Shown here one piece after another: positions 34,043-61,632 of a stretch of DNA of 64,000 nt; position 1 is the stretch's first letter; every line of letters starts with the position of its first letter. The notes under the pieces were generated by a model. It was given only the letters and a program-made list of their open reading frames with translations. It made no database searches and was not told the DNA's origin. The position numbers were made by a program, and so were the translations under genes. The stretch spans positions 149,552 to 213,551 of the forward strand of contig CAZYTL010000001.1 of NCBI GenBank assembly GCA_964650355.1, written 5' to 3'. Source of the stretch: an uncultured Gammaproteobacteria bacterium (GTDB lineage: Bacteria > Patescibacteriota > Microgenomatia > CAYXHB01 > CAZYTL01).

Positions 34043-34303
34043 CTATTTGCTGTTAATACGGTCTTTTAGTAGGGTTTCTATTCCGGACAATCTTTGATCT
34101 ATTCCCTTTAGTGTCGCGATATATTCAGATTGAGTAACATAAGTTTCTCCTTTAGATTCCAGTGCTTTAATTCTTGTATCATTTACGGCAATATTTTGTG
34201 CCAGAGGAGCCAATCTAGCAGTAATCCAAACGCCAAGCACAAGAGTAGCCACAGTAAGAACCGAGATGAGGAGCTGTACTTTTTGTCTGAATTTATCATC
34301 CAT
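34043..34303 (-). CDS. holin-like single-TM protein
   Basis: 86 aa, one TM then coiled-coil; immediately upstream of the lysin. Confidence 0.35.
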   Translation of the reverse strand: MDDKFRQKVQLLISVLTVATLVLGVWITARLAPLAQNIAVNDTRIKALESKGETYVTQSEYIATLKGIDQRLSGIETLLKDRINSK

Positions 34304-34320
34304 GTTAGATATGCTTCCAC

Positions 34321-34390
34321 AAAAAAAGCGCCGTGAATTACTTCACAACGCTTTAGTAATTATTATAGCAGAGGATCTGAAATCTATCAA
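34321..34390 (-). promoter_or_regulatory. promoter-hairpin cassette A (TTGATA-17-TATAAT, transcription start site (TSS) hairpin AAAGCGUUGUGAAGUAAUUCACGGCGCUUU + U7)
   Basis: -35 at 34385-34390, -10 at 34362-34367, hairpin 34321-34354; holin AUG 17 nt downstream. Confidence 0.55.
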
Positions 34391-39180: not shown

Positions 39181-39672
39181 TTATTCCTCCTTTTTTTCGT
39201 TTTTAATCATGGTAATAGGGAACCAGCAAAGATTGCCGCGATTGCCGCCACTTTTAGCTAAAAACATTTGAACAGCAATTGATTCACGATTATTTGCTTG
39301 TAATCTCAAATATTCAGAGTGCTCACCTTTAAGTTGAAGATATTTTGACTTCCATTTTTCTTTAACCTCTAACAACCTATCATTAAAGGGTTTAATTTTG
39401 GCTCGTAATTCCGGAGTATGTTTTTGGTACCTTTCTTCCGGAGACAATGAATTAAGGAAGTCGTTTAACTCTTTTTCAATTGGTGCCTGTTTATCTTTCA
39501 GTTCTTTATTTATATCCCCAATTTTCTGCCTATATTGTTTAATCTTCTCCTCTACGTCAGAAGTAAATGCCTTTCTCTTTTTAGTCTGAATCATCCTCAC
39601 ATCTAAAACCTCAAGTTCTTCGCCGTGGATAGTTGTAACCTTATCTCCCTTTTGGGGTGTGTCTGTAGCCAT
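39181..39672 (-). CDS. hypothetical coiled-coil protein
   Basis: 163 aa Lys/Glu-rich. Confidence 0.3.
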   Translation of the reverse strand: MATDTPQKGDKVTTIHGEELEVLDVRMIQTKKRKAFTSDVEEKIKQYRQKIGDINKELKDKQAPIEKELNDFLNSLSPEERYQKHTPELRAKIKPFNDRLLEVKEKWKSKYLQLKGEHSEYLRLQANNRESIAVQMFLAKSGGNRGNLCWFPITMIKNEKKEE

Positions 39673-39748
39673 AAAAAAACGCCGTGAATTATTTCACAAC
39701 GCTTTTTAACTAGATTTATTATATCACAAGACAAAGGTCGCCTGTCAA
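39673..39748 (-). promoter_or_regulatory. promoter-hairpin cassette B (TTGACA-19-TATAAT then hairpin+U7 directly abutting AUG)
   Basis: -35 at 39743-39748, -10 at 39718-39723, hairpin 39680-39707, A-run 39673-39679 touches start codon at 39670-39672. Confidence 0.55.
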
Positions 39749-39750
39749 TA

Positions 39751-40104
39751 TTAGAAAGCGATCAACTGCGTGTAGATCGTCACGCTGGATGTAATTACTC
39801 CTCCCCCTGCCGGAGCCACCACATCAATCCTGTCGTCTTCCTTCAGGATCAATTCCCCGTCCGGAACGTAATTGAAATATTGACCGTTATTACTACCTGT
39901 CTGCAAGACATTGTCATGTGCCGCCCCTTCACCGGAATTGAGAGTGACTTTTAAATCTGTTCCTGTATAGGTTGGAGCAGCAGAATAACTCACCAGGACC
40001 TGCAAGAGCCGCCTGGCGCTACCAGTAGGCGTTGATAGAGTTTGTAGTGTGTCCGGTGCCGATGTTTGAGCAATTCTTCTTAATACTCCTCTCATAATGT
40101 CCAC
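39751..40104 (-). CDS. hypothetical protein
   Basis: 117 aa. Confidence 0.3.
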   Translation of the reverse strand: MDIMRGVLRRIAQTSAPDTLQTLSTPTGSARRLLQVLVSYSAAPTYTGTDLKVTLNSGEGAAHDNVLQTGSNNGQYFNYVPDGELILKEDDRIDVVAPAGGGVITSSVTIYTQLIAF

Positions 40105-41888: not shown

Positions 41889-41950
41889 ATTATTTTCACC
41901 CCCCTTCTAAGTAGGAATAGTTCGGGGGAAGAATTACCAGAAGTTAGTTC

Positions 41951-42619
41951 TTATTCACCATGCTCGCGTCGATATTTTTCCCTTGCTGCTTTTGCCTCTC
42001 TCCAGGCTTTAACGCCTTCATCAGTAGTAAAATCAAAGTCTTCATGACGGAGGGGCTTAGCAGGATCGGTGCTGGTTGCATAAGAACCCCTGCTGGTTCG
42101 CTTAGGAGTGGCGGCTTTTATCCGTGCCTCCCGTTCCTCTTTTTCTTTCATGGAAAGAATATAAGGATGTTTAGCTGCTTCCCCTATAGAAATACCCTTT
42201 AACTTCGCCAAGTCTTTGACTTCTGATTTCAGCTCGTCAGACAAATTTAAGGAATTCAGTTCCATGTCTTCAAAACGAGCGTCTAGCTTCTTGTCAATCG
42301 CTTCGTCCGTTAATGGCGTTTCTTTAGGTTTGGTGTTATCCTCCTCCGGCTTATCCTTCGGTTTTTCGGAAGTCTTTTGATTTTTCTGGGCTACTTCCCT
42401 CCAGTTGATCTTTTGCTTGATCGCCCCGGACAACTTTTCATGGTGGGTTTTTTCCCGTTCGACGAGTTTGCCGAGCAGTTCTGAGTCCTCTTCCAGGTCA
42501 AGCTCGAAATCTTCGGCCAGTTTACTTCTCAACTCGTCATTATTGACTTCCTTTTTTGCCTCCTCTTCAGCTTTCTGCTCCTCTGGAGACACCTCGAGGT
42601 CTTTATCTTTTTCGTCCAT
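41951..42619 (-). CDS. scaffolding protein candidate (start revised to MDEKDKD)
   Basis: highly charged Glu/Lys helical protein immediately upstream of capsid; the ORF-track start (42652) lies inside the terminator hairpin loop. Confidence 0.45.
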   Translation of the reverse strand: MDEKDKDLEVSPEEQKAEEEAKKEVNNDELRSKLAEDFELDLEEDSELLGKLVEREKTHHEKLSGAIKQKINWREVAQKNQKTSEKPKDKPEEDNTKPKETPLTDEAIDKKLDARFEDMELNSLNLSDELKSEVKDLAKLKGISIGEAAKHPYILSMKEKEEREARIKAATPKRTSRGSYATSTDPAKPLRHEDFDFTTDEGVKAWREAKAAREKYRREHGE

Positions 42620-42638
42620 AGGACTAAATTTTTTCAAT

Positions 42639-42733
42639 AAAAAAACCGCCATCTGGCGGTATTGTCAAGAGAAGAGAAAGCGTTGTGGCGAACTCTTCCC
42701 CTGACCAAACAGTCAGAGGGTTCACAACGCTTT
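42639..42733 (-). terminator. compound hairpin (cassette C: AAAGCGTTGTG...CACAACGCTTT with inner hairpin) followed by terminator CCGCC-AGAU-GGCGG + U7
   Basis: 11-bp perfect outer IR 42677-42687/42723-42733; inner IR 42698-42720; terminator 42639-42659. Confidence 0.5.
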
Positions 42734-42747
42734 AATAAAAATTTCAA

Positions 42748-43218
42748 TTATTTATTGTCCGGATTAAATCTATGCCCACAAGCCGGACATTTAATGCTTG
42801 GCTCCACTTTCTTAAATTCGACCCGATAATCCCCCTTAGCCGCAAACTGATTAGCCAATTTAGCGAATCCCTTTCCATGGGTTTCCACGTCATATCTACG
42901 GACCTCTCTTTTATCTTTATACACCACAGCCACATTATCGTCTTTCCCAGGTTTGGAAGTTGAGGCGGGAGACGTCGCCGGCGATGCTCCTTGAGGGCTT
43001 GCGGGTCCTCCACCGCCAGCCGCATCATCGCCTTCAACTCCCTTGCCTTCCTCACCAGCCGTATCCTCAACCTCTTTATCAACATTCTCATTACCAGCTG
43101 CTTGATCTCCACCTTTCTCCTTTTCCTTGACAAACTTTTCCAAATCTTCTTGTGATGCACCAACCACGTTACCGTAACCCAATTCTGTCGCTCGTTTTTG
43201 AAGTTCTTTGTAATCCAT
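42748..43218 (-). CDS. hypothetical Gly/Ala/Glu-rich protein
   Basis: 156 aa; the alternative-frame ORF 42744-43163 reflects low complexity. Confidence 0.3.
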   Translation of the reverse strand: MDYKELQKRATELGYGNVVGASQEDLEKFVKEKEKGGDQAAGNENVDKEVEDTAGEEGKGVEGDDAAGGGGPASPQGASPATSPASTSKPGKDDNVAVVYKDKREVRRYDVETHGKGFAKLANQFAAKGDYRVEFKKVEPSIKCPACGHRFNPDNK

Positions 43219-43263
43219 GTGAATCTGTTAGATCCACAACGCTTTGATAAATACTTTATAACA
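43219..43263 (-). promoter_or_regulatory. promoter-hairpin cassette D (TGTTATAAA, hairpin GUGGAUC-UAACA-GAUUCAC abutting AUG)
   Basis: -10 at 43255-43263; half-motif CACAACGCTTT at 43236-43246. Confidence 0.45.
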
Positions 43264-43429
43264 CATCTGTCAATCTCTTGTCAATCAAAGTCCATAACGT
43301 CTTTCTACTTTTTTGGCTCGTTGCTTTCTTTTCCGCCTCAGCGCCTCTCGGGGATCCGGATTTTTCGCTTCCTCTATCGCGTCTTCCAGCCATTTCTTGA
43401 ACTGCTGGTTAGTGTGCTCACTTCCCATT

Positions 43430-43642
43430 TTAGATAACTCTTAAATAAACATTCACCTTGTCCATCCTGGTAATTTCAGCCGGCAGTTCATAATGCTTTT
43501 GTCCTTTTAATACATCACAAAATATCCAACCCAGACACTTCTCAGAAATCAATTCTTCTGATTTAACCATGATAGCGGCTGGCACGTCTTTGGTGGGTGA
43601 TTCAGATAAAATAATGATTTTACCCTTTATTCTTACCTTCAT
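43430..43642 (-). CDS. hypothetical protein
   Basis: 70 aa. Confidence 0.25.
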   Translation of the reverse strand: MKVRIKGKIIILSESPTKDVPAAIMVKSEELISEKCLGWIFCDVLKGQKHYELPAEITRMDKVNVYLRVI

Positions 43643-43899
43643 AAACCAAATTGCTCCTTTCTGGCTTGAATTTGCTGTGGAGTAGGTTCGATCTTTTCCC
43701 TGTAATTCACAAATGGGCTTAATATCTCCCGCAGTTTTTTAGACGCCAGTAATCTCACCTTTGCTTCTTCACCGGCTTTATCATTATCCAGTTTATCCAA
43801 ACCCTCGACCGTGTCCAACTTACCAATCACGGTCAAAATATGTGCTACCAAGGCTTCGAAATCGGGATTACCCCGAAGTCTTTTAACAATTTCATCCAT
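43639..43899 (-). CDS. hypothetical protein (start revised to MDEIVKR)
   Basis: the ORF-track start is a GTG codon in the promoter/hairpin; AUG is 2 nt after the hairpin. Confidence 0.3.
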   Translation of the reverse strand: MDEIVKRLRGNPDFEALVAHILTVIGKLDTVEGLDKLDNDKAGEEAKVRLLASKKLREILSPFVNYREKIEPTPQQIQARKEQFGL

Positions 43900-43962
43900 A
43901 TAAAGCGCCGGACAATAAATCACAACGCTTTTTTTGAATCAGTTTCTATTTCATTATATCAC
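43900..43962 (-). promoter_or_regulatory. promoter-hairpin cassette E (TGATATAAT overlapping TerL stop codon)
   Basis: -10 at 43954-43962; hairpin variant AAAGCGUUGUGAU...GGCGCUUU at 43908-43940. Confidence 0.45.
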
Positions 43963-45182
43963 AGTCCATAAGCCTTCCTCACGGTCTCCTGTTTTTGTGT
44001 CCGATTATATATCTGGCGCTTCTTAGTCAATTCCTCTTTTTTAGGATCCCGATGTTCCAGAGTAGACATCCCGTAACGGGCAGCGTCCATCAAATGATCC
44101 CAGATTTTTTCCGGCACATTAGGAGAAATTAACTTTCCTAATCTGTCAGTCGCCCAGACATAATTGCGGTATTCTTTAATCAAATTTACACTTCGTTTAG
44201 TCACACTAATAGGCACGTCCTGCATAAATTGAATTCCCTGTCTAACCGAATCTTTACCTTTATCTGCTGCTCTGATATTCACGCCATAAGAATAAATCTC
44301 GTCTATGCTCTTAGGCTCTGCCGAATCAGCTATTACTAAAATATGAGCCTGCGGTAAATACAGAATAAAATCCGCGATCTGTTTATTTGACATTCCTTTT
44401 TGATAAAGTTGTTCATCAAAAATATATCCCCCGTTCAGATAATAAATATCCACCAAGGCTGTTGGATCCAAAGAGTAACCAAAATCCAGTCCTCGCCGTT
44501 CTAGCCGCGCCTCGTGGGGTATTCCATCGATTATTTGCCATCCTATATAAATTTTACCTATTAACTCTCCAAATAATCCCTCCCCATAAACTCTCCAAAA
44601 ATTCTTATTATTTTTCCTCGCCTCAATGGATTGGATAATATTTTCAGATAATGCCTCATTGTCATTATAAGTTAAAATTATATGATCATAATCTTTTCTC
44701 TTAGGTAAAATCTCTTCTGATACCCAAAATTCAGCTACCGGATTATAATCCAAAAAAACAAACTCATTAGTTCTGATTTCCAACTGTTCAAATGTTTCAA
44801 AAGGTACATTATTCGCCTCATTAATAAACAGCCTGTCCCGCCTCGGTCCCCGAACCTTGCCCGGCTGGTCTGCAGAAAAAAATTCTAGCTTGCTTCCCGT
44901 TTCAAAAATATAGAGATAATCAGTTTTATTCCATCGCTGGTTTCTAAAGAGATTTAATCCTCCCATTATGTTCAAAAAGTCCCTCATTGCCCCTCTTTTT
45001 AAATGTGGGAAACTCTCTGACACTACACTAGTCAACGTAGGCTTCTCGTCTCTTTGGGCGCGGTCTATCAAATAAATCAAAATACTAAAGGTTTTTGAAG
45101 AAGCAGTCCCACCCTGAATAATTCTCAATCGTTTAGTTAGCTCCTGGATCTTCTTGGTCGCCGTGGTTATTCCTGGCTGCAT
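43959..45182 (-). CDS. terL: terminase large subunit (PBSX/XtmB-like)
   Basis: Walker-A-like GGTASSKT, nuclease acidic motifs IADSAEPKSI and DHLMDAARYG. Confidence 0.85.
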   Translation of the reverse strand: MQPGITTATKKIQELTKRLRIIQGGTASSKTFSILIYLIDRAQRDEKPTLTSVVSESFPHLKRGAMRDFLNIMGGLNLFRNQRWNKTDYLYIFETGSKLEFFSADQPGKVRGPRRDRLFINEANNVPFETFEQLEIRTNEFVFLDYNPVAEFWVSEEILPKRKDYDHIILTYNDNEALSENIIQSIEARKNNKNFWRVYGEGLFGELIGKIYIGWQIIDGIPHEARLERRGLDFGYSLDPTALVDIYYLNGGYIFDEQLYQKGMSNKQIADFILYLPQAHILVIADSAEPKSIDEIYSYGVNIRAADKGKDSVRQGIQFMQDVPISVTKRSVNLIKEYRNYVWATDRLGKLISPNVPEKIWDHLMDAARYGMSTLEHRDPKKEELTKKRQIYNRTQKQETVRKAYGL

Positions 45183-45624
45183 AATCTAGTAAAGGAATCG
45201 GCTTTCCGCCGCTAGTTAAATCAGTTTCAGTCCTGTCTTTCCACCGAGAATAGTTGTTTTTCAGATTAAACATTGCTCCGGTCGGATTTTTCCCGATAAA
45301 CAATGATTCTTCAGCGTAACCTTCACATATCCCTTTCGCTCTTTTTATCGTGTCAGAAAACCTAGTTTTCTCCTCATAATCCAACAGGGTTTCTCTTGTT
45401 GTATTCAATGCCACCGCCAATCCAGTAATTATGTAAGGCTTGAACTGCTCCATTACCTTCTTTTTTGTTACTTTTCCGGTTTTATCTTTGTGAAACACAA
45501 GATTGCCATCCCGATCTATTTTCTGTCTCCAACAAGATTTAAAATACTTGTTGATTTTTTTCTCCAATTCCTTGATCGATTTGAATTTCAATGGTCTTCC
45601 GCCCTTGTTAATAATTTTAGCCAT
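45133..45624 (-). CDS. terS: terminase small subunit
   Basis: N-terminal KGGRPLKF and ITGLAVALN motif typical of TerS HTH; overlaps terL. Confidence 0.65.
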   Translation of the reverse strand: MAKIINKGGRPLKFKSIKELEKKINKYFKSCWRQKIDRDGNLVFHKDKTGKVTKKKVMEQFKPYIITGLAVALNTTRETLLDYEEKTRFSDTIKRAKGICEGYAEESLFIGKNPTGAMFNLKNNYSRWKDRTETDLTSGGKPIPLLDYAARNNHGDQEDPGAN

Positions 45625-45641
45625 ATGCCTTAGTTACACGC

Positions 45642-45689
45642 AAAAAAAGCGCCGTGAACTATCTCACAACGCTTTATTAAATTATAACA
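45642..45689 (-). promoter_or_regulatory. promoter-hairpin cassette F upstream of terS (TGTTATAAT; hairpin+U7; AUG 16 nt later)
   Basis: -10 at 45681-45689; hairpin 45646-45675. Confidence 0.55.
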
Positions 45690-45712
45690 TAGCAGTATAA
45701 TATATTCATTAG

Positions 45713-45786
45713 TGCGCTCCTCTAGACTTGAACTAGAATCTAAACGTTCGATACACGTTTGCTTTATCCAATTAAGCTAGGAGCGC
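45713..45786 (-). tRNA. phage-encoded tRNA, anticodon AUC (nominally Asp, unusual A34)
   Basis: hand-folded: 7-bp acceptor GCGCUCC/GGAGCGC, U8, D-stem GCUU/AAGC with loop AAUUGGAUA (G18G19), anticodon stem AACGU/ACGUU with loop GUAUCGA (U33, R37), variable loop UAGAU, T-stem UCUAG/CUAGA with T-loop UUCAAGU, discriminator A. Confidence 0.6.
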
Positions 45787-45796
45787 ATTTTTGTGC

Positions 45797-45858
45797 ATAA
45801 AAAAAGCGCCCTTTGTGTTGCTCAGGGCGCTTTGCTCAGTTTCCCGAGCAACACAAAA
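45797..45858 (-). promoter_or_regulatory. attenuator-like element: terminator AAAGCGCCC-loop-GGGCGCUUU+U7 overlapping an alternative 13-bp helix
   Basis: perfect 9-bp IR 45803-45811/45825-45833 with A7 at 45799-45805; competing IR TGTGTTGCTCAGGG / CCCGAGCAACACA (45815-45828 / 45843-45855). Confidence 0.45.
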
Positions 45859-45876
45859 GACGTTTATAGATTTAAG

Positions 45877-45942
45877 CAAAGCGCGTGGTATTTCACAGCG
45901 CTTTTAATAATTCCAGTATATTATTTGGGGACCAGCTGTCAA
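45877..45942 (-). promoter_or_regulatory. promoter-hairpin cassette G2 (TTGACA-16-TATACT then AAAAGCGCUGUGAAAUACCACGCGCUUU)
   Basis: -35 at 45937-45942, -10 at 45915-45920; hairpin 45877-45907. Confidence 0.45.
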
Positions 45943-45964
45943 GATCGATTGAATGTGCTATAAT
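45937..45964 (+). promoter_or_regulatory. plus-strand promoter of the island (TGcTATAAT extended -10), overlapping the divergent minus promoter
   Basis: TGCTATAAT at 45956-45964; start codon of first island gene at 45999. Confidence 0.4.
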
Positions 45965-45998
45965 TTTTGTTAAGACATATAAAAATCCTCCTTGTTAT

Positions 45999-46367
45999 AT
46001 GAATTGGTTAATCAATCATAGTGAGTGGACTTTTCCAATTCTTTTAATATTAGCTCCAATTGGGGTATTTATTCTTTACCGCTTTTTTGAGTGGGAAGAA
46101 AAAATAACTACAAAAACTATAAACTCCATTGAAAAAAACTTAAATAGTAATCTCAAAAATTTACCCCAAAATAAATTGTCTATAATTATAGTTCTAATTA
46201 TTAGTATTTTATTGATAACTTTTTATTGGTTTGAGTGGCGTCCTTCTCAAGTTAAAGCTTATTGTAATCAGTACACCCGCTGGAATGAAAATGGACCTAA
46301 AGTCGATCCTCGTTCCAGATTTTATGATATCTACTACAAAGATTGCCTCCACTCCAAAGGACTCTAA
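45999..46367 (+). CDS. 2-TM membrane protein (moron candidate; start revised to MNWLINH)
   Basis: two hydrophobic helices; opposite strand to all phage genes; the ORF-track N-terminus covers the promoter. Confidence 0.4.
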   Translation: MNWLINHSEWTFPILLILAPIGVFILYRFFEWEEKITTKTINSIEKNLNSNLKNLPQNKLSIIIVLIISILLITFYWFEWRPSQVKAYCNQYTRWNENGPKVDPRSRFYDIYYKDCLHSKGL

Positions 46368-46875
46368 AATTAAGTTGTTCAAAACTGTTACTTTTGTTAT
46401 CTTCGTTATTGGTGTAACGACGTTTAACTATGCAATCTGGAAGAAATCTTCACTCTCTCAAAATATAGAGAGCTGTCCAATTAATAAGCTTGGTATTGAA
46501 TTATTGCCGACCAACATTCAAAACAGTAAAACCATCATCCAACTCATAAAGAAAAACTGTTATTTAGCTTCAACCGCTTTTGAAGATTTTACTCACGATG
46601 GAAGAAAAGACATTTTATTAACCGGAATAGGATATGGATGTGTAAGTTGTCATGCCCGTGATATATACATTCTAAATAATAATAAAATTATTTTTTCATA
46701 TACTGGGGATGATGCCAATATAAAGCAAATTCCAGACGGATTCTTGTTAACAGAACCCATCCGTAAGACCGAGGAGCCATATTGTTGTCCTTCTCAATCA
46801 ATAAGTACCGAATATGATTATTCTCCACAAACAAATAGCTTTATTAAAACCCAGTCAATTATTATAGACAATTAA
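46324..46875 (+). CDS. membrane-anchored Cys-containing extracytoplasmic protein (moron candidate)
   Basis: TM helix then domain with YGCVSCHARD and EPYCCPSQ; +1 frame relative to upstream gene with 44-137 nt overlap (possible frameshift). Confidence 0.35.
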   Translation: MISTTKIASTPKDSKIKLFKTVTFVIFVIGVTTFNYAIWKKSSLSQNIESCPINKLGIELLPTNIQNSKTIIQLIKKNCYLASTAFEDFTHDGRKDILLTGIGYGCVSCHARDIYILNNNKIIFSYTGDDANIKQIPDGFLLTEPIRKTEEPYCCPSQSISTEYDYSPQTNSFIKTQSIIIDN

Positions 46876-46877
46876 TC

Positions 46878-49800
46878 TCAGTAAGAAATTTTTAAGCCCA
46901 ATTCTTTCAATACCACCGGATCAATTCCCGCAACCACCTTGTTAAGATATTGCTTTCCCAATGTGTCTATATCCTTTGATTTGACCCTATTCACCCCTCG
47001 ATTATAGGCAACGATTGCCTTCGCATAATCTCCTTCAAAAGTCTTCAAGTTTTGCTTGATAATTTTAGTTGCATAAACAATCGAAAAAACAGGATCAAGC
47101 GCCTGTTCTTGGGTCACGTTAGGATGAGCATTGCTATTTAATTGAGCAATTCCCACATCCCAGGATCCATCGCTATTCTGATTTTTAGCACCAGGATTAA
47201 ATCCGCTTTCACTGAAAAAGATCGACGCCATCACTGCCGGCACCACGCCTGAGTTTTCAGCAGCCGAATTAATCAATCCTCCAATCTGCTCATTCGGCTT
47301 TTTTCTTTCTTTCTCCTTAAATCCGGAGACTATAGCCGATGTAGGAATTGGCTCCGGATTCTTGCTCGATTGTTGAACCTCTGCGGCGGCCTCCTGACTA
47401 GCGATGTAATTCGGGGCTCCATCCGGCCACTCCTTCCCTGTTACCTCCGGATACATTTTCTGCCAGGCTGCCAACGCCCGATCCTTTTCTTCCTCAGTGT
47501 CAAAAATAGAAGTCTGACCATTGGGATAAGAAACCTCAATCTTCCCATTGAGTAGATCTCTTACACGATAGGGATCCTCATCAGTTTTTTCAGTCAATCC
47601 TTCTGGCTTGGCTGTAGGACTTACCCAGGTTACTGGTTCGCGCTGAAATAATCTTGTGATTGCCCGCTTAACCTTCTCCCAAAAAGAAGGTTTGGGATTC
47701 GCCTTTTCTCTCTCCCAATCTGCCTTAGTCCAATTCTCAGCCGCTAATACATCCGGGACAATCTTTGCGTGGGCAGACTCCAGGAAACCTAAAAGTAAAT
47801 TCTGTTCATCTGTGGGCGCCTCTCCTACTTCTCTCCGGATCCGTTTAAGCGCCTCATCGCTAATTACCTTATTTTTACGTGCGGTATTCAACAGATCATC
47901 ATATTGCTCCGGTGTCAAAGATTTCTTATATAGCTTCATTAATTCTACTTTCTCGTCATTCGTTGTCGCCTCGATTAAACTATCCATTTCTTGGCTCACT
48001 TCACCCTTGATCAATCCAATCTTAAACTTCTTTAGCGTATTTGTCCGCCGGCGTCTATCCGCCTCAGTAAGGATTTTGTCCCCTACAACCTCCCTCACCA
48101 GTTCCTTTTTAAGTCGATCTACCGATTCCGGATTTTCCTTTCCCCGTTTAATATAATCAGCCAGAATCTTTCTTTCCTTCAAAACCCGCTGAGCAGCCTG
48201 TTTATCTAATTCTTTCTTGATTACCTGCTCTGACTCCTTCATTCCATAATCCGTGGACTTAATCGCCCGATTGACTAAAGGAATATTTTTCAATAAATAA
48301 TCAAGTGTGGTATCTGTTTCGTCTGAATAGGTAGTAAACTGGGAGAAACCCAACTCATTCGTTGTCCATTTAATCATCTTCATATACATCGGTAATCCTC
48401 CAGCCTTCCAGGTAATATCGTCAACTACTGGCCGGCCCCTGTAGTTATCGTAAGGATTCTTGCCCTGTAATACGTTCATCCATGCGCCGCCAATTTCCCA
48501 AAGCGGGGTCATTGAGGGAATGTAACCGGATAATAAGTAACCAATTTGTTCCGGTTTTTTGAGGTCATGGTTAAGATAAGTTCCGAGCTTCCAGACAACA
48601 GCAGAGAAGAGCCGTCCGGTTTCGTCCTGGGGGATCCGCCAGTAAGTCGCCTTGCCATTCTTCCTCAAACCCAGAGGGACAATGATATAGTTTGTCTTGT
48701 CATATTCAGTCGCTTTATCTAAAATCTCCTTCACCGTAGCCCCGAAAAGCCCAGCAATCCCAGCCAGCATTAACATTTTAGGTAAAATATCTACTTGAAA
48801 AGTCTTCATCCAGTATCCGGACCGAGTTTGGGGGTTGGTTGCCAGCTCAAAGTCAGTCCGGAGAGCCTGAAGCGCTACATTAGAAAATACAAATACATTA
48901 TTATCCACCACCTTCTGATTCCCGCCATCTATAAAATTAGGAGTACCTACATAGTTACGGGTAATAAATCCGGCCTCCCTTCCGCTTAACTCTCGCTTCT
49001 TGGTCAATTGATAACCTGCTACCTTACTGGTAGTTTCAAACGTAGATCCCACCAGCTCGATTCCATTAAGAATTTTTCGAACCGGTTTTAACATCTGCTC
49101 TTTAAGCCCGCCCTGTTTAACGTCGTCAGTCACGGGGCGGTAACGCTTGATGATTGGCTTTAACCACTCCGCCTCATTCGCAGTGGTATCAAACTTAGTA
49201 AATGGTGTAGTAAATGCCCGATAGTCTAATGCCTCTCTTACCAACGGATCAATTACGTCATTCTGGTAACGGTAAGCCCCCGGAATTGCCTTTAGATACT
49301 CAGATATAAATTCAATAATAGATAATCCCTTTTTATTACCCACCTGTGGGAGTATTGCGCCTAAATTTTTATATGTCCTCTTGGCGTCTCTGATAATATT
49401 GGCGTAAAATCCCCAGGAAATATTGTAAGTAGTCACTACCGGCTTAAACAGTCGATTAAATGCCCCAGATGCTTTGACAATATTATGAATTTCACCCGGC
49501 AGATAAAAGTCAAACATTTGTGCGATATAGGGATCCACGTCATAGGCAATTCGTTTACCATCTTCAAATAATTCCAACGGGACTCGATTTTTAACTTTCT
49601 TCCACCCCACCCGCACACCTTTAGGTTTAACTGGCTTGCTCTTGGAAATATCTGTTGGGAAATTTTCAAGTAATTGATCAACAACCGCCCTCTTGCCTTT
49701 CTGTAGTTCGATTTGCTCTATCAATGCCGCCGTCTTGAGAATTGATGAAGTAGCTGGATTTTCTATTGGCTTTAGTGTTCCTATTGCTTCTTTAATTGCC

Positions 49801-52800
49801 GGCGTTACATAGTTATTATGGATATACTCAATTACTTGGAATGTGGCGTAAGTGTCTTTATTCGGCTTGGCTGTCTCATTAAAAAATTTCTTGCTGTAAA
49901 CTCCGGTCTCGGCCGCCTGCTCTACCACACTGAAGGTCAATTCCCTGAACTTCCCGGCTGATTGCTGAAGAATATTAAATTGTTCATCGCCAATTCCCCG
50001 CTTAGCTAAATGCTTCTTAAAATAATCTAGTGTCTCTTGTGCGTATTCGCCTTGTAAACCATATGGGTTGGCAATATCCTTACGATCTCCAAGCTCCCTT
50101 TCAAGCTTAAGCAGAGTTCCCAAATCATCCTCAGTCATTCCTAATTGATCTAAGGGTGAAGTGATGTCTTTAATAACTGAATCCAGATAGAGATAAACCG
50201 CATTTCTCCTCATCTGCATTTCCTCTAGCTGCATCCGAAGTCGTTGTTTGGGAGATATAATAATGCCGTAGTCTTTTGAAATTGAGTCTACCTTGCGATA
50301 AATAGGATCAAAGCGGGTAATGTGCTGTCTCATAAAGCCCGCCCAAACAGACATTACTCTTTCCATTATCGACTGTCGGGGAAGCTTCTCTTCCATGATT
50401 CCCTTACGGATAGCCTTTGCCTCTGCAAAACCCTCGTAGATGGCATTTAGCCGCTTCTCCTGCACTACATCAGCTGGCTCGTTAAGCAAATCCCAAATTA
50501 CAAACAAATTTTCTTGTACTGCTGGCTTACGGTCTAAATATTCAATAAAGCCCTGCCAGAACTTAGGAGCTTCTGTCTGTAATCGCTTGGGATCATTAAA
50601 TAAGACACTGATCGCATCGGCGTATAATTCCTTTGAAGATCGACGGTATTTATCGTATTTACTTCCTCCCTTACGTTCAAATTCTCCCCGCCATTTTGCA
50701 GATAAATCCATTAACTCATTTCTAATCGCCTTGTTGGTTGATAAATTTCCATAAGTTCCGGCTATATGTTTTTTTAATGTTGCCAATCGCCCCAATAAAT
50801 TACCCCGCGACAACAATTCGTCGGGTAAATAATCAACCAAATGACCAATCTCATGTGCCAAAGTTTTAGTAGCCGTCTCAATATCTGAAAAAATATCAGC
50901 CCTTAATTTAATTTTTCCACCTTCCTTACCGATAAAAACCCCCAAAGCTTTTTGTCCCCCTCTCGTTCCGACTTGTTTCTTAACTACTGGATATTTATTC
51001 ATCAATTCCCTTGTGAGTCCAACCATCTCTGGAAATGGAACTATCTTCACTTCACTCTGAATCTTTGTCAAATTCGGTAATGATTCAAAACCACCAATAG
51101 CAGCAGCTGAAGTCGTGCCTTTTTTCACTAGAGTTTCTCCTTTCGCCAATGCCTCAACCTGCTTCATTAAAACGTTTTCACTTATTCCCAACGCTGTCGC
51201 AACCTCATCAGAGGCCAGTTGACCATTTTTACCCTCTGGAATATGTTCACGGAATAATAAACCAGTCTTCTTACTTTTCTTCTCAGCCAAAAGTCTAAAC
51301 ACTTTCACTAAATACTTAACATCATCGGCAGAATTTCCATACTTAGCGTATTTATCCACAACTCCTTCCTTTTGTGCTCGTTTCATTTCCAACTCTCTCT
51401 CTCGATTTACTGCATTTAATAGTTTTTCATAAGCTGGCTTGATACCTTCAATTCCTGAATATAACTCCTGGGCAGCCGCCAGATCTCCGCTATCAATCGC
51501 TTCCTTTACCATCTCTAGTTCAGCCTTGGTTTCTTCCGGTAAATTCTTCAATAATACCTCTACTGTTTCTGATGGGGGAGGGGCTTCCTTTAATTCTTTT
51601 GCTGTCTGCTTAATTTTATCTGATAACTTACCTGTTTCTAAAAGATTCTTATTATTGGGGTAAATTACCAACTTGGAATCAGTTATCTCTCCTTTTAATA
51701 CGCGTAGCCTTTCTTGTAGATAATCCCTTTGCTGATTAATATCTTCACTTTCTTTTCCTGATAACTCATCCAACTTTTTCTGAATAGCTTCTGGATCAAT
51801 TGAATTAAGAACAGATTCACCCAATCGCCGTTTTTTTATTTCTTGTTTAATTATCTTAGGTACTGAGGGCTCCACAATTTCCACTCTCAATGCAGTCTCA
51901 TCTTCCGTGGGTGATATTTTTATATTTTTATTGTCCCGTTGCGCTTGAAGTGCCGCCTGGAATACCTGCTTGCCAGTATCGCCCTTAATTTCATTTTTCG
52001 CCAACATCTTCATTGCCTCATCCGGTGTCAATTCTATGGTTGACAATGCCTTTACCACTTCCTCTTGTTGGGGTGTGCGCTCTTCGCGGGGTATCTCAAT
52101 TGCCTTCTGAATCTTTTCTTTTATTTGTTGACCAACTTCTTCCGGAGTTGATTTTTTTCCCGTCAATCCAATCACCCCGGAAACTGTCACATCTGAGAAA
52201 CCACCAAGCAATGCCCCAACCACCGCCGATTCCTTAACCCCCTCAAATAAATCCTTGTGTTTGTTATAAGTTTGAGCCACGGCGTTTTGGACAATTTGTT
52301 GAAGTCCCTCCGTGACCCCTTCCATGCCGGACTGAATCGCCACATCAACCATCCCCTCTGTAATCATTTTTAGTAATGGCTTTTTAACTGTGGATCCTAA
52401 GCCTGTTTTCCTGATTAGTCTTTCTAAGGGAATCACGTCTAGTGCGCCCATGATGGATCCACCAATCATGGCTAAGGGCATTGCTTCATTATCGGAAAGT
52501 CCTGCGGTTCTTGCTTCTACATAAACATCATTGGCGTTCAATCCATAAGAAGTAGATAAACCGACCTCCGTAGCCAATATTGGGTTCTTCGTCACTACCT
52601 CTGTAGCCAAAGCCAGACCATAGCTAACAGCCATCTGGGGTACATTGTATGCGGCCATTTCTAAATAACCCTGCAATCCTGTCGAAGGCGTATAGGTCTT
52701 TTTGAATTCCTCCTCTGCCTTTTGTTGTTTTGTATATCCAGACTCCTTAAGCTGTCTAGCATATTCAGGTGATCCAATGATTGGACCCTGGATGGTAAGT

Positions 52801-53186
52801 GCTGATTCTTTCGGCTGATATTTTTCGCCACCAGGCAAAATCTTTAATGTTGTCTTAATAAAAGCTCTATTAATTTTCCTCTGAATGTCTGTTAAATTAG
52901 CCAGGATAATTCCGCCGGCAGTCTCAAACTGCCCAGGCGTGGCTTTCAACCCACCAACAAAAGATTGTCCCAGTTTTTGAAGATTCAACCCCTCAATTGT
53001 ACCCGTTTCCTGTGGTCCAGTTTCTATTTTATGTATTGGCTCCGTGGGTATAATCGGTCTATTTGTACTGGGCAGGAATTTGACAATTTCCTCATGTGTT
53101 GGAATTCCAAGTCGTTGGGTACTTAAAACCTGGTTCTTTTTAAGTTCCTGTTCTATTTGCTGGTGAGTGGGAAGGGTGAAGGGCAT
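46878..53186 (-). CDS. giant virion protein, tape-measure/ejection-like, with zincin HEIGH motif and C-terminal lytic transglycosylase (SLT) domain
   Basis: 2102 aa; Gly-rich and coiled-coil N-terminal third; TLAHEIGHLVDY; C-terminal FSESGFNPGA...DVGIAQLN...AYNRG SLT motifs. Confidence 0.6.
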   Translation of the reverse strand: MPFTLPTHQQIEQELKKNQVLSTQRLGIPTHEEIVKFLPSTNRPIIPTEPIHKIETGPQETGTIEGLNLQKLGQSFVGGLKATPGQFETAGGIILANLTDIQRKINRAFIKTTLKILPGGEKYQPKESALTIQGPIIGSPEYARQLKESGYTKQQKAEEEFKKTYTPSTGLQGYLEMAAYNVPQMAVSYGLALATEVVTKNPILATEVGLSTSYGLNANDVYVEARTAGLSDNEAMPLAMIGGSIMGALDVIPLERLIRKTGLGSTVKKPLLKMITEGMVDVAIQSGMEGVTEGLQQIVQNAVAQTYNKHKDLFEGVKESAVVGALLGGFSDVTVSGVIGLTGKKSTPEEVGQQIKEKIQKAIEIPREERTPQQEEVVKALSTIELTPDEAMKMLAKNEIKGDTGKQVFQAALQAQRDNKNIKISPTEDETALRVEIVEPSVPKIIKQEIKKRRLGESVLNSIDPEAIQKKLDELSGKESEDINQQRDYLQERLRVLKGEITDSKLVIYPNNKNLLETGKLSDKIKQTAKELKEAPPPSETVEVLLKNLPEETKAELEMVKEAIDSGDLAAAQELYSGIEGIKPAYEKLLNAVNRERELEMKRAQKEGVVDKYAKYGNSADDVKYLVKVFRLLAEKKSKKTGLLFREHIPEGKNGQLASDEVATALGISENVLMKQVEALAKGETLVKKGTTSAAAIGGFESLPNLTKIQSEVKIVPFPEMVGLTRELMNKYPVVKKQVGTRGGQKALGVFIGKEGGKIKLRADIFSDIETATKTLAHEIGHLVDYLPDELLSRGNLLGRLATLKKHIAGTYGNLSTNKAIRNELMDLSAKWRGEFERKGGSKYDKYRRSSKELYADAISVLFNDPKRLQTEAPKFWQGFIEYLDRKPAVQENLFVIWDLLNEPADVVQEKRLNAIYEGFAEAKAIRKGIMEEKLPRQSIMERVMSVWAGFMRQHITRFDPIYRKVDSISKDYGIIISPKQRLRMQLEEMQMRRNAVYLYLDSVIKDITSPLDQLGMTEDDLGTLLKLERELGDRKDIANPYGLQGEYAQETLDYFKKHLAKRGIGDEQFNILQQSAGKFRELTFSVVEQAAETGVYSKKFFNETAKPNKDTYATFQVIEYIHNNYVTPAIKEAIGTLKPIENPATSSILKTAALIEQIELQKGKRAVVDQLLENFPTDISKSKPVKPKGVRVGWKKVKNRVPLELFEDGKRIAYDVDPYIAQMFDFYLPGEIHNIVKASGAFNRLFKPVVTTYNISWGFYANIIRDAKRTYKNLGAILPQVGNKKGLSIIEFISEYLKAIPGAYRYQNDVIDPLVREALDYRAFTTPFTKFDTTANEAEWLKPIIKRYRPVTDDVKQGGLKEQMLKPVRKILNGIELVGSTFETTSKVAGYQLTKKRELSGREAGFITRNYVGTPNFIDGGNQKVVDNNVFVFSNVALQALRTDFELATNPQTRSGYWMKTFQVDILPKMLMLAGIAGLFGATVKEILDKATEYDKTNYIIVPLGLRKNGKATYWRIPQDETGRLFSAVVWKLGTYLNHDLKKPEQIGYLLSGYIPSMTPLWEIGGAWMNVLQGKNPYDNYRGRPVVDDITWKAGGLPMYMKMIKWTTNELGFSQFTTYSDETDTTLDYLLKNIPLVNRAIKSTDYGMKESEQVIKKELDKQAAQRVLKERKILADYIKRGKENPESVDRLKKELVREVVGDKILTEADRRRRTNTLKKFKIGLIKGEVSQEMDSLIEATTNDEKVELMKLYKKSLTPEQYDDLLNTARKNKVISDEALKRIRREVGEAPTDEQNLLLGFLESAHAKIVPDVLAAENWTKADWEREKANPKPSFWEKVKRAITRLFQREPVTWVSPTAKPEGLTEKTDEDPYRVRDLLNGKIEVSYPNGQTSIFDTEEEKDRALAAWQKMYPEVTGKEWPDGAPNYIASQEAAAEVQQSSKNPEPIPTSAIVSGFKEKERKKPNEQIGGLINSAAENSGVVPAVMASIFFSESGFNPGAKNQNSDGSWDVGIAQLNSNAHPNVTQEQALDPVFSIVYATKIIKQNLKTFEGDYAKAIVAYNRGVNRVKSKDIDTLGKQYLNKVVAGIDPVVLKELGLKISY

Positions 53187-53197
53187 AATTCATAAAA

Positions 53198-54679
53198 TCA
53201 CAACGCCTGAAGAACCTCATTTCGAATGTCCTCCGGCACGTTAGAAATAGTCGCCTGCCCGTTATTAATTGCATTAGCCCACGTCTGTATCTCTGATTCA
53301 TTGTTGGCATTGGCTGCATAACTAGTCCGATATTGCTTTTCCAACTCCTTAACCATCGCCGGGCCAAAAGATATCCTCGACGCGCTCTGGGCTGCCGTTA
53401 AATACTCTTGGAATGTTGGTGCACCCGCCTTAATCTGTAGTGCTGCCAACACCTCATTTCTTATTTCCTCTGGCACCTGAGAAATCGTAGCTAATCCATT
53501 ACGTACCGCATATACCCAGGTCTGCACATCACTGTCTGTACTGACTGTACCGTCTTTGGGAACCCTGTAATAATGAACAGTTCCTCTTGAATCAATAAAA
53601 CTTCTTAGTTGGCTGGCCGGCACGGTTGAAGGATTAACCACCGCCACCCCACCCTCCAGAGTTATTTTATTCGCCTGCTCTTTTACTTCATTGGCATACT
53701 GAGCATTAGCCAATTTAGAATTGATCGTCTCGACTGAATCATTTAGTGATACTCCCCCCTGGGCCATCAATAAAGCAGTGTTCGGATCCACCATTAATTC
53801 CTTAATCATGTTGACTGCTGCCTGGGCATTAGTAAGGTCTGTCTTTTTAAGATTAAGCTGTTCTTCAGCCAATTTTTTAGATTCATTATCCAAACTAACA
53901 ATATCCTGACGATTCAAATTCAAAATTGTCTCATAATAGGCAATCTGGTCCTGTCTATCCGCGGTAATTGCCCCCACCGATCTATCAATCATATTCTCAG
54001 CCACCGCTATTTGGCCGTTCCTGGCATTAATTACTGCCTCTATAACCCCTGCCCGGGCAGCCACATCATCCATTGTCTTTTGGATCCGGGGATTCCGGAC
54101 CGCCGCCAATCCTGTAATTTCCTTTTGTTGTTTGATCAGATCATTTCCCTCTGTTAATAATTGATCCAATTCATTAACTAATTTTTGATTTTCCTCAAAA
54201 TTCTGATTAATATACAAACTCTCCCGCTGTGTCTTCTCTAAGTCTGCCCTAAATGGCTCAGTCAATGGCTTAACTTTCTCTAAAGTTTGCTGCTCCTTTT
54301 GTCTCGCCGCCTCCATTTGTGCATTATTTAAGTCCTGTTGCTGTTTTAGGCTGTCCTCCAACGCCTTTCTTGCCGTATCTAATTGACCCTGTAAACTTGT
54401 GACATATGACTGATTCGCTCCGGAGCTTAATGGTACGCTGACCGGCGTCTGAATCTGGTTTGCCTGATATTCTTGCTGTTGTTGCTGTACGTATTGAACA
54501 TTCGCCGGATTAGTCTGCGCAATTACCTCTGCGGAGGTCTGTTTCCCTGGCTCGTATTCACCTGAAGCCAATAATTGACCATTTAGATATCGCCTTGAGT
54601 CGTACCACTTTCCCTCTTCGGGGGCAACAATCTTTCCATTGTCTAGTCTAATTTGATTTCCTGAAATTAATGTAGCCAT
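53198..54679 (-). CDS. coiled-coil protein with duplicated C-terminal ~30-aa motif
   Basis: 493 aa; QTWVYAVRNGLATISQVPEEIRNEVLAALQ and QTWANAINNGQATISNVPEDIRNEVLQAL. Confidence 0.35.
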   Translation of the reverse strand: MATLISGNQIRLDNGKIVAPEEGKWYDSRRYLNGQLLASGEYEPGKQTSAEVIAQTNPANVQYVQQQQQEYQANQIQTPVSVPLSSGANQSYVTSLQGQLDTARKALEDSLKQQQDLNNAQMEAARQKEQQTLEKVKPLTEPFRADLEKTQRESLYINQNFEENQKLVNELDQLLTEGNDLIKQQKEITGLAAVRNPRIQKTMDDVAARAGVIEAVINARNGQIAVAENMIDRSVGAITADRQDQIAYYETILNLNRQDIVSLDNESKKLAEEQLNLKKTDLTNAQAAVNMIKELMVDPNTALLMAQGGVSLNDSVETINSKLANAQYANEVKEQANKITLEGGVAVVNPSTVPASQLRSFIDSRGTVHYYRVPKDGTVSTDSDVQTWVYAVRNGLATISQVPEEIRNEVLAALQIKAGAPTFQEYLTAAQSASRISFGPAMVKELEKQYRTSYAANANNESEIQTWANAINNGQATISNVPEDIRNEVLQAL

Positions 54680-54729
54680 AAAAAAGCGCCGTGGATATCC
54701 ACAACGCTTTTAATAAATATATTATAACA
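54680..54729 (-). promoter_or_regulatory. promoter-hairpin cassette I (TGTTATAAT; hairpin+U6 directly abutting AUG)
   Basis: -10 at 54721-54729; hairpin AAAGCGUUGUGGAUAUCCACGGCGCUUU at 54683-54711; A-run touches start codon 54677-54679. Confidence 0.55.
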
Positions 54730-54733
54730 GCTA

Positions 54734-55561
54734 TTAGGCTATTTGGTCTTTGAAAATAATTACTCTGAAATTATAGTCTTTATCAGATCCTTGTGAAGTC
54801 TGCCTTACATTACACACAATATCGCTTATCGAAGCATATGCGTCAATAATCACGGGCTGTGGCGCCCGCCCTTGAGGAAGTATTCGTTGGTAACTATCCA
54901 ACCATGTATATTTCACATAGGCTATAAACGCAGGCACATATCCCAATGAATGAGAAACTGAAATAGAGCCAGTTAAATTACCGGCTGGAATAGTCAAATC
55001 CTTCGTCTGGTCATCGTGGTACTTTAGCATTGGCAAGTCAGGATGTAATAAAATTTCCCCGATATCAGTTGTTGCAACATCAGCCCCTTCCTTAACAACC
55101 TTTATCCCGTAATCTGCGGTTAACAAACTTGCAATATCTCCACTTTCATCACCCCCTAAAAAGTACCCAAAATAATTAACTGTAATATCGCCACCGCTAC
55201 TGTTTCTTAAATATAACCTGAATTTTGTGCTATCAACGTAACTAAACGCCAGGTCACCGTTTCCGTCTATTCCAACATCAACCCAAACATTCGAGTCAAT
55301 ATCTAGTGACGATCTTTTAATTGCTCCCATCCACCATCTGAAAGTCGATTGTTTTGTCCAAAACAAAGTTACCGGGACAAATGGTAGCCCATGATTGATC
55401 TCCACGGCTGCGTAACTGCCCGCCGGCACGTTTACGGATCCGGAGAAAGACCCGCAAATTTTAACGGTCCCATAACCAGAGTGCAGGACAAAGTCCCGAG
55501 GATCATTAGAGCCAATATCTTTTCCAGGCCGGCTAATCTTAGCCCCATATTCAGTAGTCAT
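54734..55561 (-). CDS. tail-fibre-like protein (paralogous N-terminus with next gene)
   Basis: MTTEYGAKISRPGKDIGSN vs MSEVYGFKVSKPGHDVKTA. Confidence 0.35.
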   Translation of the reverse strand: MTTEYGAKISRPGKDIGSNDPRDFVLHSGYGTVKICGSFSGSVNVPAGSYAAVEINHGLPFVPVTLFWTKQSTFRWWMGAIKRSSLDIDSNVWVDVGIDGNGDLAFSYVDSTKFRLYLRNSSGGDITVNYFGYFLGGDESGDIASLLTADYGIKVVKEGADVATTDIGEILLHPDLPMLKYHDDQTKDLTIPAGNLTGSISVSHSLGYVPAFIAYVKYTWLDSYQRILPQGRAPQPVIIDAYASISDIVCNVRQTSQGSDKDYNFRVIIFKDQIA

Positions 55562-60593: not shown

Positions 60594-60636
60594 AAGCGTT
60601 GTGGAATTTTGCACAACGCTTTGATTCATTATAACA
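60594..60636 (-). promoter_or_regulatory. promoter-hairpin cassette upstream of HNH (TGTTATAAT; perfect 10-bp palindrome abutting AUG)
   Basis: AAGCGTTGTG-GAATTTTG-CACAACGCTT at 60594-60622; -10 at 60628-60636. Confidence 0.5.
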
Positions 60637-60768
60637 CCTAGACTAATTACTGCCTATAGAAACTTTCTCATAAATTACCCTTCTATTTACCCTTAATGAA
60701 GTTGAACTTTTTTAATCCTTTGTTGAACTAACATTCTCTAACAGCCACACTGTCCGGGAATTGTAAAA

Positions 60769-61408: not shown

Positions 61409-61632
61409 GGTGTTTGGTTGGGTTGGGCGGATGGTGGATTAAATCCTTTTATAATATATCCTTCGTCAAAATACTTAGGATCTAACACCATTGGTTGCTC
61501 TAGGTCAAAGTTTGTATCGTCTTTATCGCCACTAGCAAAACCATGCCAATATTTTTTACCTGTAACATCGTCAACCGCAAGCTCCCAACGGGCATCTTGT
61601 TCTCCTACCTCCATAGTTTTTTGGTTACTCAT
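61405..61632 (-). CDS. hypothetical protein
   Basis: 75 aa. Confidence 0.25.
   Translation of the reverse strand: MSNQKTMEVGEQDARWELAVDDVTGKKYWHGFASGDKDDTNFDLEQPMVLDPKYFDEGYIIKGFNPPSAQPNQTP

Follow-up and report, generated by a model that had tools for sequence, protein, structure and literature searches.

Why does a prophage whose genes otherwise run in one direction carry two small genes on the opposite strand, and what might their products do? We examined this question in a 64,000-nt stretch of contig CAZYTL010000001.1 (GenBank assembly GCA_964650355.1, positions 149,552 to 213,551 of the forward strand), referred to as the window in its whole length. Prophage genes occupy the minus strand from position 32976 to the window end, apart from an island of two plus-strand genes, open reading frame (ORF) A and ORF B, located between terS and the gene of a giant virion protein of 2102 amino acids (aa). 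A prediction made earlier from the DNA letters alone (the original prediction) had described a two-gene island of membrane proteins at this site, with coordinates that proved accurate to within 1 nt. On balance, and with little more than even confidence, we regard the island as accessory cargo (a moron) that was drawn from a host-side gene pool and has an envelope function.

A plus-strand island with a promoter match of its own

The island and its junctions comprise the following features.

45999–46367, plus strand: ORF A, 122 aa (ATG at 45999, stop codon at 46365–46367)
46324–46875, plus strand: ORF B, 183 aa as annotated at NCBI (ATG at 46324, TAA at 46873–46875)
46873–46880, both strands: convergent stop codons, the ORF B TAA (46873–46875) and the minus-strand TGA of the giant gene (46878–46880), separated by a gap of 2 bp as originally described
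45936–45964, plus strand: island promoter, a consensus match with −35 box CTGTCA (45936–45941), 17-nt spacer and extended −10 box TGCTATAAT (45956–45964)
45942 to 45915, minus strand: divergent promoter toward a tRNA gene and terS, with TTGACA (45942 to 45937), 16 nt and TATACT (11/12 matches)

Codon scoring identified ORF A and ORF B as coding in their annotated frames only. They overlap by 44 nt (46324–46367), with ORF B in the +1 frame; the start of ORF B is uncertain, as alternative ATG codons are present at 46285 and 46291. The overlap had been taken as a possible frameshift or fusion. The overlap itself is real, but both products align end to end with stand-alone homologues. It encodes the invariant C-terminus of the ORF A family and the unconserved cytoplasmic N-terminus of ORF B, after which the family anchor follows, and a frameshift or fusion is therefore not supported. 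An independent Logan assembly of SRR14802573 (11,965 bp) was 100% identical over 41948–53912, and no assembly frameshift was visible. That the island is an artefact, whether because its ORFs are spurious products of AT-rich spacer DNA or because a sequencing frameshift in the overlap broke a single gene in two, we consider very improbable and refuted by the homologue alignments. The 44-nt overlap of frames and the very low GC content might suggest this, but they are outweighed by the identical assembly, the frame-specific coding scores, a confidently predicted ORF B ectodomain (pLDDT 96) and full-length conserved homologues with invariant motifs, in which the stop codon of ORF A coincides with the family C-terminus and the start of ORF B just precedes the family anchor.

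The GC content of the island was 31.6%, compared with a window mean of 41.9% (sd 3.1). This is 3.3 sd low and the minimum of all 877-nt segments in the 64 kb. The composition of the island is thus foreign to the rest of the window. Short direct repeats flanking the island were considered and rejected, as they look like chance matches.

The extended −10 promoter claimed for the island was recovered, and no other plus-strand site of the 64 kb combines an extended TG with 10/12 matches or more. The island promoter lies 35 nt 5′ of the ORF A start codon. The divergent minus-strand promoter is one of five sites in the window scoring at least 11/12, and the −35 boxes of the two promoters overlap, as had been noted, by 5 nt. 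The 374-nt spacer between terS and ORF A holds both of the best promoter matches of the region from 43 to 54 kb.

The prophage genes use a different arrangement, a cassette in which TGnTATAAT is followed within approximately 10 nt by a terminator-like hairpin (AAAGCGTTGTGA..TTCACGGCGCTTTTTT). Four copies were found, all on the minus strand (0.1 expected), directly 5′ of the C39 peptidase gene region, a 163-aa gene, terS and a 493-aa gene:

34300–34400, minus strand: hairpin cassette
39655–39755, minus strand: hairpin cassette
45625–45725, minus strand: hairpin cassette of terS, with TGTTATAAT and then AAAGCGTTGTGAGATAGTTCACGGCGCTTTTTTT, in contrast to the island
54662–54805, minus strand: hairpin cassette

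These cassettes look like promoter-proximal terminators that would need an antiterminator, that is, a gate for late genes. The island promoter shares their TGnTATAAT type of −10 box and lacks the hairpin, in agreement with the original prediction. Because it has its own unique plus-strand promoter match without a gating hairpin, the island is supported as a separate transcription unit, as far as sequence signals can indicate. The absence of a Shine–Dalgarno (SD) motif from the island was also confirmed, but it is not distinctive: SD-like motifs precede only 7 of the 52 genes in the window (3/29 host genes and 4/23 phage genes). This scarcity in host and phage genes alike fits a lineage in which translation mostly starts without the help of SD motifs.

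Several further elements were observed in and around the spacer. A fifth hairpin at 45878–45905 is degenerate and lacks a T-run. The other two perfect TG-TATAAT promoter matches of the minus strand are found at 34362–34390, before the C39-like peptidase region, and at 60628–60656, before a NUMOD3 gene. The terS leader contains a minus-strand tRNA gene (45713–45786), which was called by ARAGORN and by a sensitive Rfam search (54.2 bits) and was missed by the whole-window search at the gathering threshold. Its anticodon loop, GUAUCGA, gives the anticodon AUC (Asp, GAU); A34 and G32 are unusual in bacterial tRNAs. Between the divergent promoter and the tRNA gene (45804–45865, minus strand), two hairpins overlap, GTGTTGCTC/GAGCAACAC and AGCGCCCT/AGGGCGCT, the latter with T7. 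Because the loop of the second is formed by the 3′ arm of the first, their arrangement is suggestive of an attenuator or a pseudoknot. At 45969–45992 on the minus strand, a perfect AAGGAGGA stands 9 nt before an ATG-TCT-TAA mini-ORF, antisense to the 5′ untranslated region of the island. The island mRNA consequently has UCCUCC shortly before its start codon, which is probably due to chance.

Two families of membrane-anchored cysteine proteins

Hydropathy analysis placed two transmembrane segments in ORF A (residues 12–30 and 60–78) and one transmembrane anchor in ORF B (approximately residues 19–38), and family alignments showed conserved cysteines. This bears out the description of the products as a protein with two transmembrane segments and a membrane-anchored protein with a cysteine motif. 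Both ORFs initially appeared to be orphans, as word-indexed searches of 5.8 billion proteins returned self-matches only. This was overturned for ORF B by HMMER and for ORF A by searches of neighbouring ORFs and by pattern scans. Neither had a significant family in Pfam, PHROGs, PADLOC or NCBIfam (PADLOC: nothing at E ≤ 1).

An exhaustive HMMER search of 1.84 billion cluster representatives retrieved 305 relatives of ORF B with E ≤ 1e-3, of which 68 had E ≤ 1e-10. The family comprises at least 305 clusters at 50% identity. The small relatives (140–280 aa) align over approximately residues 46–175 at 28–44% identity, while huge FG-GAP/VCBS proteins match in the acidic loop only (residues 78–105). 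Family features were derived from alignments of 26 and 68 members. The N-terminus of ORF B is rich in lysine and is followed by the transmembrane anchor, which is common to the members except one that has a lipobox instead. Landmarks of ORF B are an FG-GAP-like acidic loop (D88–D95; D-x-(T/D)-G-D-G-x-x-E in the family), the loop G-Y-G-C106-V-S-C109-H, and the cysteines C51/C79 and C154–C155; the family also shares the motif E-P-x-R-x-x-x-E-x-x-C-C-P. In the family loop G-x-G-C-x-S-C-H, C106 was conserved in 68/68 members, C109 in 67/68, S108 in 59/68 and H110 in 58/68. The CxxCH in this loop was considered as a haem site of c-type cytochromes and rejected, as the remaining members have R, K or N in place of the histidine and the structural model is all-beta. 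A profile search of PDB sequences with ORF B produced nothing beyond motif-level matches, to cytochrome c555 over 12 residues and to calcium loops of PL11 lyases.

The cysteine pairs (51,79), (106,109) and (154,155) were kept or lost jointly across the 68 members. The patterns, in the order C51, C79, C106, C109, C154, C155, were:

CCCCCC: 33 members
CCCC--: 14 members
--CCCC: 11 members
--CC--: 3 members

We infer from this pairwise loss that the domain is extracytoplasmic and contains disulfides, with 51–79 and 106–109 as the expected bonds. The extracytoplasmic location is predicted because the lysine-rich N-terminus is followed by a membrane anchor, one member has a lipobox and the cysteine pairs covary.

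The first relative of ORF A (L022, 4133–4504; L numbers are our labels for loci) was found by a local search of neighbouring ORFs (E 7e-8) and adjoins an ORF B homologue. Pattern scans added five loci in metagenome-assembled genomes (MAGs) of the candidate phyla radiation (CPR) and 11 metagenome loci, giving 17 other loci in all. The MAG loci belong to Saccharibacteria, Levybacteria, Buchananbacteria, Gribaldobacteria and one genome labelled Bdellovibrionales. Most relatives are 66–90 aa long, with one transmembrane segment and then FYWFxxRPxQxxKxC ... YxxCLxxxGL(EK). In ORF A, the corresponding tail reads FYWFxWRPSQxK..C89 ... Y113..C116-L-H-x-K-G-L at the C-terminus. Invariant residues in the alignment are F75, Y76, W77, F78, R81, P82, Q84, C89, Y113, C116, L117, G121 and L122. 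ORF A would expose a 44-aa tail with two cysteines outside the cytoplasmic membrane.

AlphaFold2, run with the family alignment, predicted the full ORF B with a pLDDT of 91.4 and its ectodomain of approximately 135 aa with a pLDDT of 96.1 and a pTM of 0.89. The ectodomain model consists of two short helices and eight beta strands. When the full-length and ectodomain models were compared with PDB and BFVD, Foldseek returned no match with E < 0.01 (best E 0.05–0.08). The matches were two-blade fragments of propellers (DDB1, integrin alpha, PQQ dehydrogenase), and the only small proteins spanned end to end by the model were PliI-Ah (3od9; TMt 0.42) and CarG (4o7j; TMq 0.46/TMt 0.41). CarG reportedly resembles PliI. 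The NCBIfam family XAC2610_fam (NF047539) matched residues 86–127 of ORF B with 19.4 bits (cut-off 35; E 1.1e-3) and was matched weakly in 6 of 26 relatives. Pfam PliI and MliC did not match ORF B, and none of its larger relatives proved to be a bona fide XAC2610 member.

X-Tfi (XAC2610) is a lipoprotein that inhibits XAC2609, a GH19 peptidoglycan-hydrolase effector, and has a propeller-like topology that is also seen in PliI-Ah and Tsi1 (PMC10933484). Its calcium loop (151–159) precedes its inhibitory loop (165–173), and PliI and Tsi1 make contact through a serine (PMC10933484). The order is the same in ORF B, where the acidic loop 88–95, which probably binds calcium, is followed by one strand and then by the C-x-S-C-H loop. 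The XAC2610, PliI and CarG hints are mutually consistent in pointing weakly to ORF B as an inhibitor of peptidoglycan hydrolases, each of them below significance.

In some larger relatives, the ORF B domain was fused to an Rce1/CPBP intramembrane protease or to TPR repeats, or was present in up to three tandem copies (P0060, 467 aa; P0118, 402 aa; P0016, 435 aa). CPBP proteins have been linked to bacteriocin immunity. The fusions are not decisive for function.

Prophage setting and loci of relatives

The window joins a segment of host chromosome to the prophage.

1 to approximately 31 kb: host chromosome segment, with genes including those for IF-2, glycogen synthase, glycosyltransferases, Wzy and an ABC transporter
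31110–32123, plus strand: tyrosine integrase, preceding the prophage and outside the minus-strand block
32976–34040, minus strand: C39-like peptidase, the likely lysis enzyme of the prophage
Minus strand: phage fibre of 1237 aa with a Laminin_G_3 domain
43959–45182, minus strand: terL
45133–45624, minus strand: terS
46878–53186, minus strand: gene of the giant virion protein, which has a C-terminal SLT lytic-transglycosylase domain
46974–47276, minus strand: this SLT domain, residues 1971–2071 (PF01464, E 1.4e-16)
Minus strand, other prophage genes in the window: an SU10-adaptor-like protein and a HerA-like ATPase

The PHROG match of the giant protein was to a lytic tail protein or internal virion protein with an endolysin domain. 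Its SLT domain is a neighbour of the island rather than a part of it and is a possible functional partner.

The claim that the island contains the only plus-strand genes in 32 kb was essentially right, with the integrase outside the block. One ambiguous ORF of 112 aa (61313–61651, plus strand) lies across two minus-strand ORFs. It had no family match and a weak coding score (−0.065), and is probably not a gene, yet it is the sole other plus-strand candidate in the phage block.

Nine independent loci of ORF B homologues were read for context. In five of them (L014, L015/16, L019/20, L021 and L022–24), the homologue was encoded in an operon divergent from an XRE/HTH_3 gene of 69–76 aa, and small transmembrane ORFs often lay between the two. 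L015/16 (Candidatus Collierbacteria) and L019/20 are small integrative elements with a large serine recombinase, and L015/16 also has Terminase_2. At L017/18, the homologue was found among a D12 methyltransferase, a type I S subunit and a PhD/ParE pair, and at L021 its locus was convergent with a MerR/NACHT gene of 1427 aa. ORF A-like and ORF B-like genes occur in one operon at L022–24, which links the two families; the ORF A-like gene at L014 is doubtful, and ORF B was absent from all 16 loci with ORF A only.

The integrative elements (L015, 6502–14107; L016; L019, 3259–11993; L020; all in CPR MAGs) contained, besides the XRE gene and the ORF B homologue, genes for membrane-anchored proteins, DUF5677 and a secreted SNase or a Terminase_2 small subunit. 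No capsid genes were visible, and so these elements may be satellite-like. A conserved protein of approximately 100–108 aa with several transmembrane segments (…LFNP.xP.YL…W..ID…) is encoded before the ORF B-like gene at L019 (7669–7995) and before the ORF A-like gene at L026 (5667–5972). An SNase-like gene was located a few genes downstream in both loci, right after the ORF A-like gene at L026 and after the DUF5677 gene at L019, suggesting shuffled modules of envelope or secreted cargo.

Homologues were found in MAGs of Collierbacteria, Saccharibacteria, Levybacteria, Buchananbacteria and Gribaldobacteria. This distribution makes CPR/Patescibacteria the probable host of the temperate phage. 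Among phage data (PHROGs, IMG/VR pattern scans, BFVD and 50,697 GenBank phages), no relatives of ORF B were found, and pattern scans of viral, genome and metagenome contigs with the ORF B alignment gave no match. With homologues in CPR genomes and mobile elements and none matched in phages, the families belong to a cellular and mobile-element pool of CPR. The prophage appears to have acquired a copy of a cassette from this pool, which would fit the foreign GC content.

An envelope function and its alternatives

We propose that host RNA polymerase would transcribe the island from its hairpin-less copy of the extended −10 promoter of the phage. Production of the two proteins would then not depend on the hairpin-gated operons for structure and packaging, and because of this independence expression is likely also in the lysogen. 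ORF A and ORF B would insert into the cytoplasmic membrane with their disulfide-stabilised domains facing outward, and their most likely role is to protect the lysogen at its envelope. Immunity or superinfection exclusion at this level is our best guess at the function. The moron with an envelope-level role put forward in the original prediction is supported by the separate unit, the foreign GC content, the membrane-anchored cysteine proteins and the homologues in CPR genomes and integrative elements. The check for homology to structural or lysis proteins pointed the same way: Pfam and PHROGs gave no such match, and the relatives belong to uncharacterised CPR families, with integrative elements included for those of ORF B. 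Morons are common, and an island as such is ordinary.

Several observations weigh against this interpretation. Of the features of a moron, an own promoter (at consensus level) and an atypical composition were found, but an own terminator was not: nothing terminator-like was present on the plus strand past 46875 and no hairpin in or near the gap between the stop codons, which makes antisense read-through from the island into the giant gene plausible. No sister phage with a junction of the giant gene and terS was found among relatives of terL (55–70% identity) or of the giant protein (56%), so that the insertion is deduced from composition alone. The island is not beside a repressor in the window, the prophage repressor region lies outside it, and the PADLOC defence models matched neither ORF. 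In some of the elements, the ORF B homologue opens the main operon and is not an isolated moron. A more specific version, in which ORF B would bind and block an enzyme that degrades the wall, for instance the SLT domain brought in by virions of this phage type, we consider unlikely. No wall hydrolase was present beside the homologues in the nine loci read, and 4QTQ was not retrieved by the profile search of PDB sequences. None of the links to inhibitor families reached significance (19.4 bits where the cut-off is 35; Foldseek E 0.37–0.41; TM < 0.5), and they may stem solely from the shared FG-GAP-like acidic loop and a generic beta topology.

Spelled out, this mechanism of low probability would make ORF B a membrane-anchored inhibitor of peptidoglycan-cleaving enzymes, of the PliI/X-Tfi (XAC2610)/Tsi1/CarG structural class. 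Its disulfide-stapled CxSC(H) loop would reach into the active site of a lysozyme or lytic transglycosylase and either keep superinfecting virions from penetrating the wall or protect against the prophage's own SLT protein. The XAC2610_fam matches in 6 of 26 members, PliI-Ah and CarG as the sole small-protein fold neighbours, the X-Tfi-like order of the acidic loop and a G-Y-G-C-V-S108-C-H loop whose serine is kept in 59/68 members, and an SLT domain encoded in the gene 2 bp from the ORF B stop codon are all in line with it. None of the matches is significant, however, the missed 4QTQ counts here as well, ORF B and the SLT gene are convergent although effector–immunity pairs are usually co-transcribed, and homologues elsewhere have no adjacent hydrolase. 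Extended to the whole family, the idea becomes somewhat less probable still: ORF B relatives would be a so far unrecognised, CPR-wide class of inhibitors of wall enzymes, distant kin of PliI, X-Tfi, Tsi1 and CarG, with the CxSC(H) loop as the active-site plug and the ORF A family as membrane partner. Prophages and small integrative elements would use them for a new kind of superinfection exclusion, in which the lytic transglycosylase on virions of incoming phages is blocked at the cell wall. The literature search turned up no account of an exclusion protein acting as an inhibitor of a virion hydrolase. If true, the weak link to immunity proteins against peptidoglycan hydrolases would provide a testable mechanism of phage exclusion in CPR and extend the inhibitor superfamily beyond Proteobacteria.

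Lysogenic conversion by surface or adhesion factors is also rather doubtful. Here the two-blade unit of ORF B might, for example, oligomerise to a lectin-like pseudo-propeller and alter the wall or the host-cell contact of an episymbiotic CPR bacterium. The FG-GAP-like motif and the eight-strand, two-blade architecture of ORF B recur in large VCBS/FG-GAP surface proteins and in PL11 lyases, homologue operons encode further membrane-anchored proteins that are cysteine-rich or FG-GAP-like together with a secreted SNase, and the genes of many family members lie on chromosomes. The searches matched no family of lectins or adhesins, though, and the XRE-adjacent sites in integrative elements and a site in a defence-like island elsewhere favour element-related immunity. 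A role in the lytic cycle, such as lysis control of the holin/antiholin kind or help from the membrane in assembly or DNA entry, with expression during infection and not in lysogeny, is quite improbable. ORF A has the size of a holin and two transmembrane segments, the island promoter shares its −10 type with the phage cassettes and the island lies between the structural and packaging modules. A holin/spanin lysis cassette was nevertheless rejected, because PHROG and Pfam gave no holin, spanin or lysis match and the candidate lysis enzyme, the C39-like peptidase at 32976–34040, is 12 kb away with its own cassette. Most ORF A relatives are single-spanning and occur in non-phage contexts, and the opposite strand, the foreign GC content and the missing gating hairpin also argue against expression as part of the lytic programme.

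The preferred reading of the island as envelope-directed cargo would concern organisms whose phage and envelope biology is, to our knowledge, almost unexplored. ORF A and ORF B define unnamed families that are widespread in CPR/Patescibacteria and have no Pfam, NCBIfam, PHROG or PADLOC model. The ORF B family is new, with a confidently predicted fold that has no significant PDB match and a CxSC(H) loop as its most conserved element, and it recurs beside XRE regulators.

Compared with known proteins, ORF B shares with FG-GAP/VCBS families (PF01839, PF13517) the loop D-x-(T/D)-G-D-G-x-x-E-(I/L), which single repeats of their huge members match, and the calcium loops of the PL11 lyases YesW and YesX resemble its acidic loop. 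Unlike the FG-GAP/VCBS proteins, ORF B has one such motif in a stand-alone eight-strand domain of 135 aa and no seven-blade propeller. It remained under every Pfam threshold, that of FG-GAP included, with weak FG-GAP matches in 6 of 26 relatives. Like X-Tfi, PliI, Tsi1 and CarG, ORF B is a small beta protein, membrane-tethered and (by prediction in its case) extracytoplasmic, in which an acidic loop of the calcium type precedes an exposed conserved loop. It may also share their propeller-like topology, and a peptidoglycan-cleaving domain is encoded in the adjacent, convergent gene. ORF B alone has the invariant CxSC(H) loop and up to three cysteine pairs. It also differs from this class in its transmembrane anchor, which replaces a signal peptide or lipobox (one member excepted), and in not forming an operon with a hydrolase.

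Known superinfection-exclusion (sie) proteins include Ltp of Streptococcus phage TP-J34, Sie2009 of lactococcal phages, gp15 of HK97 and SieA of P22. The island differs from these systems in having no PHROG or PADLOC similarity and in being wedged between the gene of the virion SLT protein and terS, outside the lysogeny module. It resembles superinfection-exclusion and moron genes in its small membrane-anchored products (lipoproteins in some of the known cases), its own promoter within a prophage and its atypical composition. The classical position of sie genes is beside an XRE-type regulator, and ORF B homologues at five of the nine loci likewise lie beside the XRE-type regulator of integrative elements.

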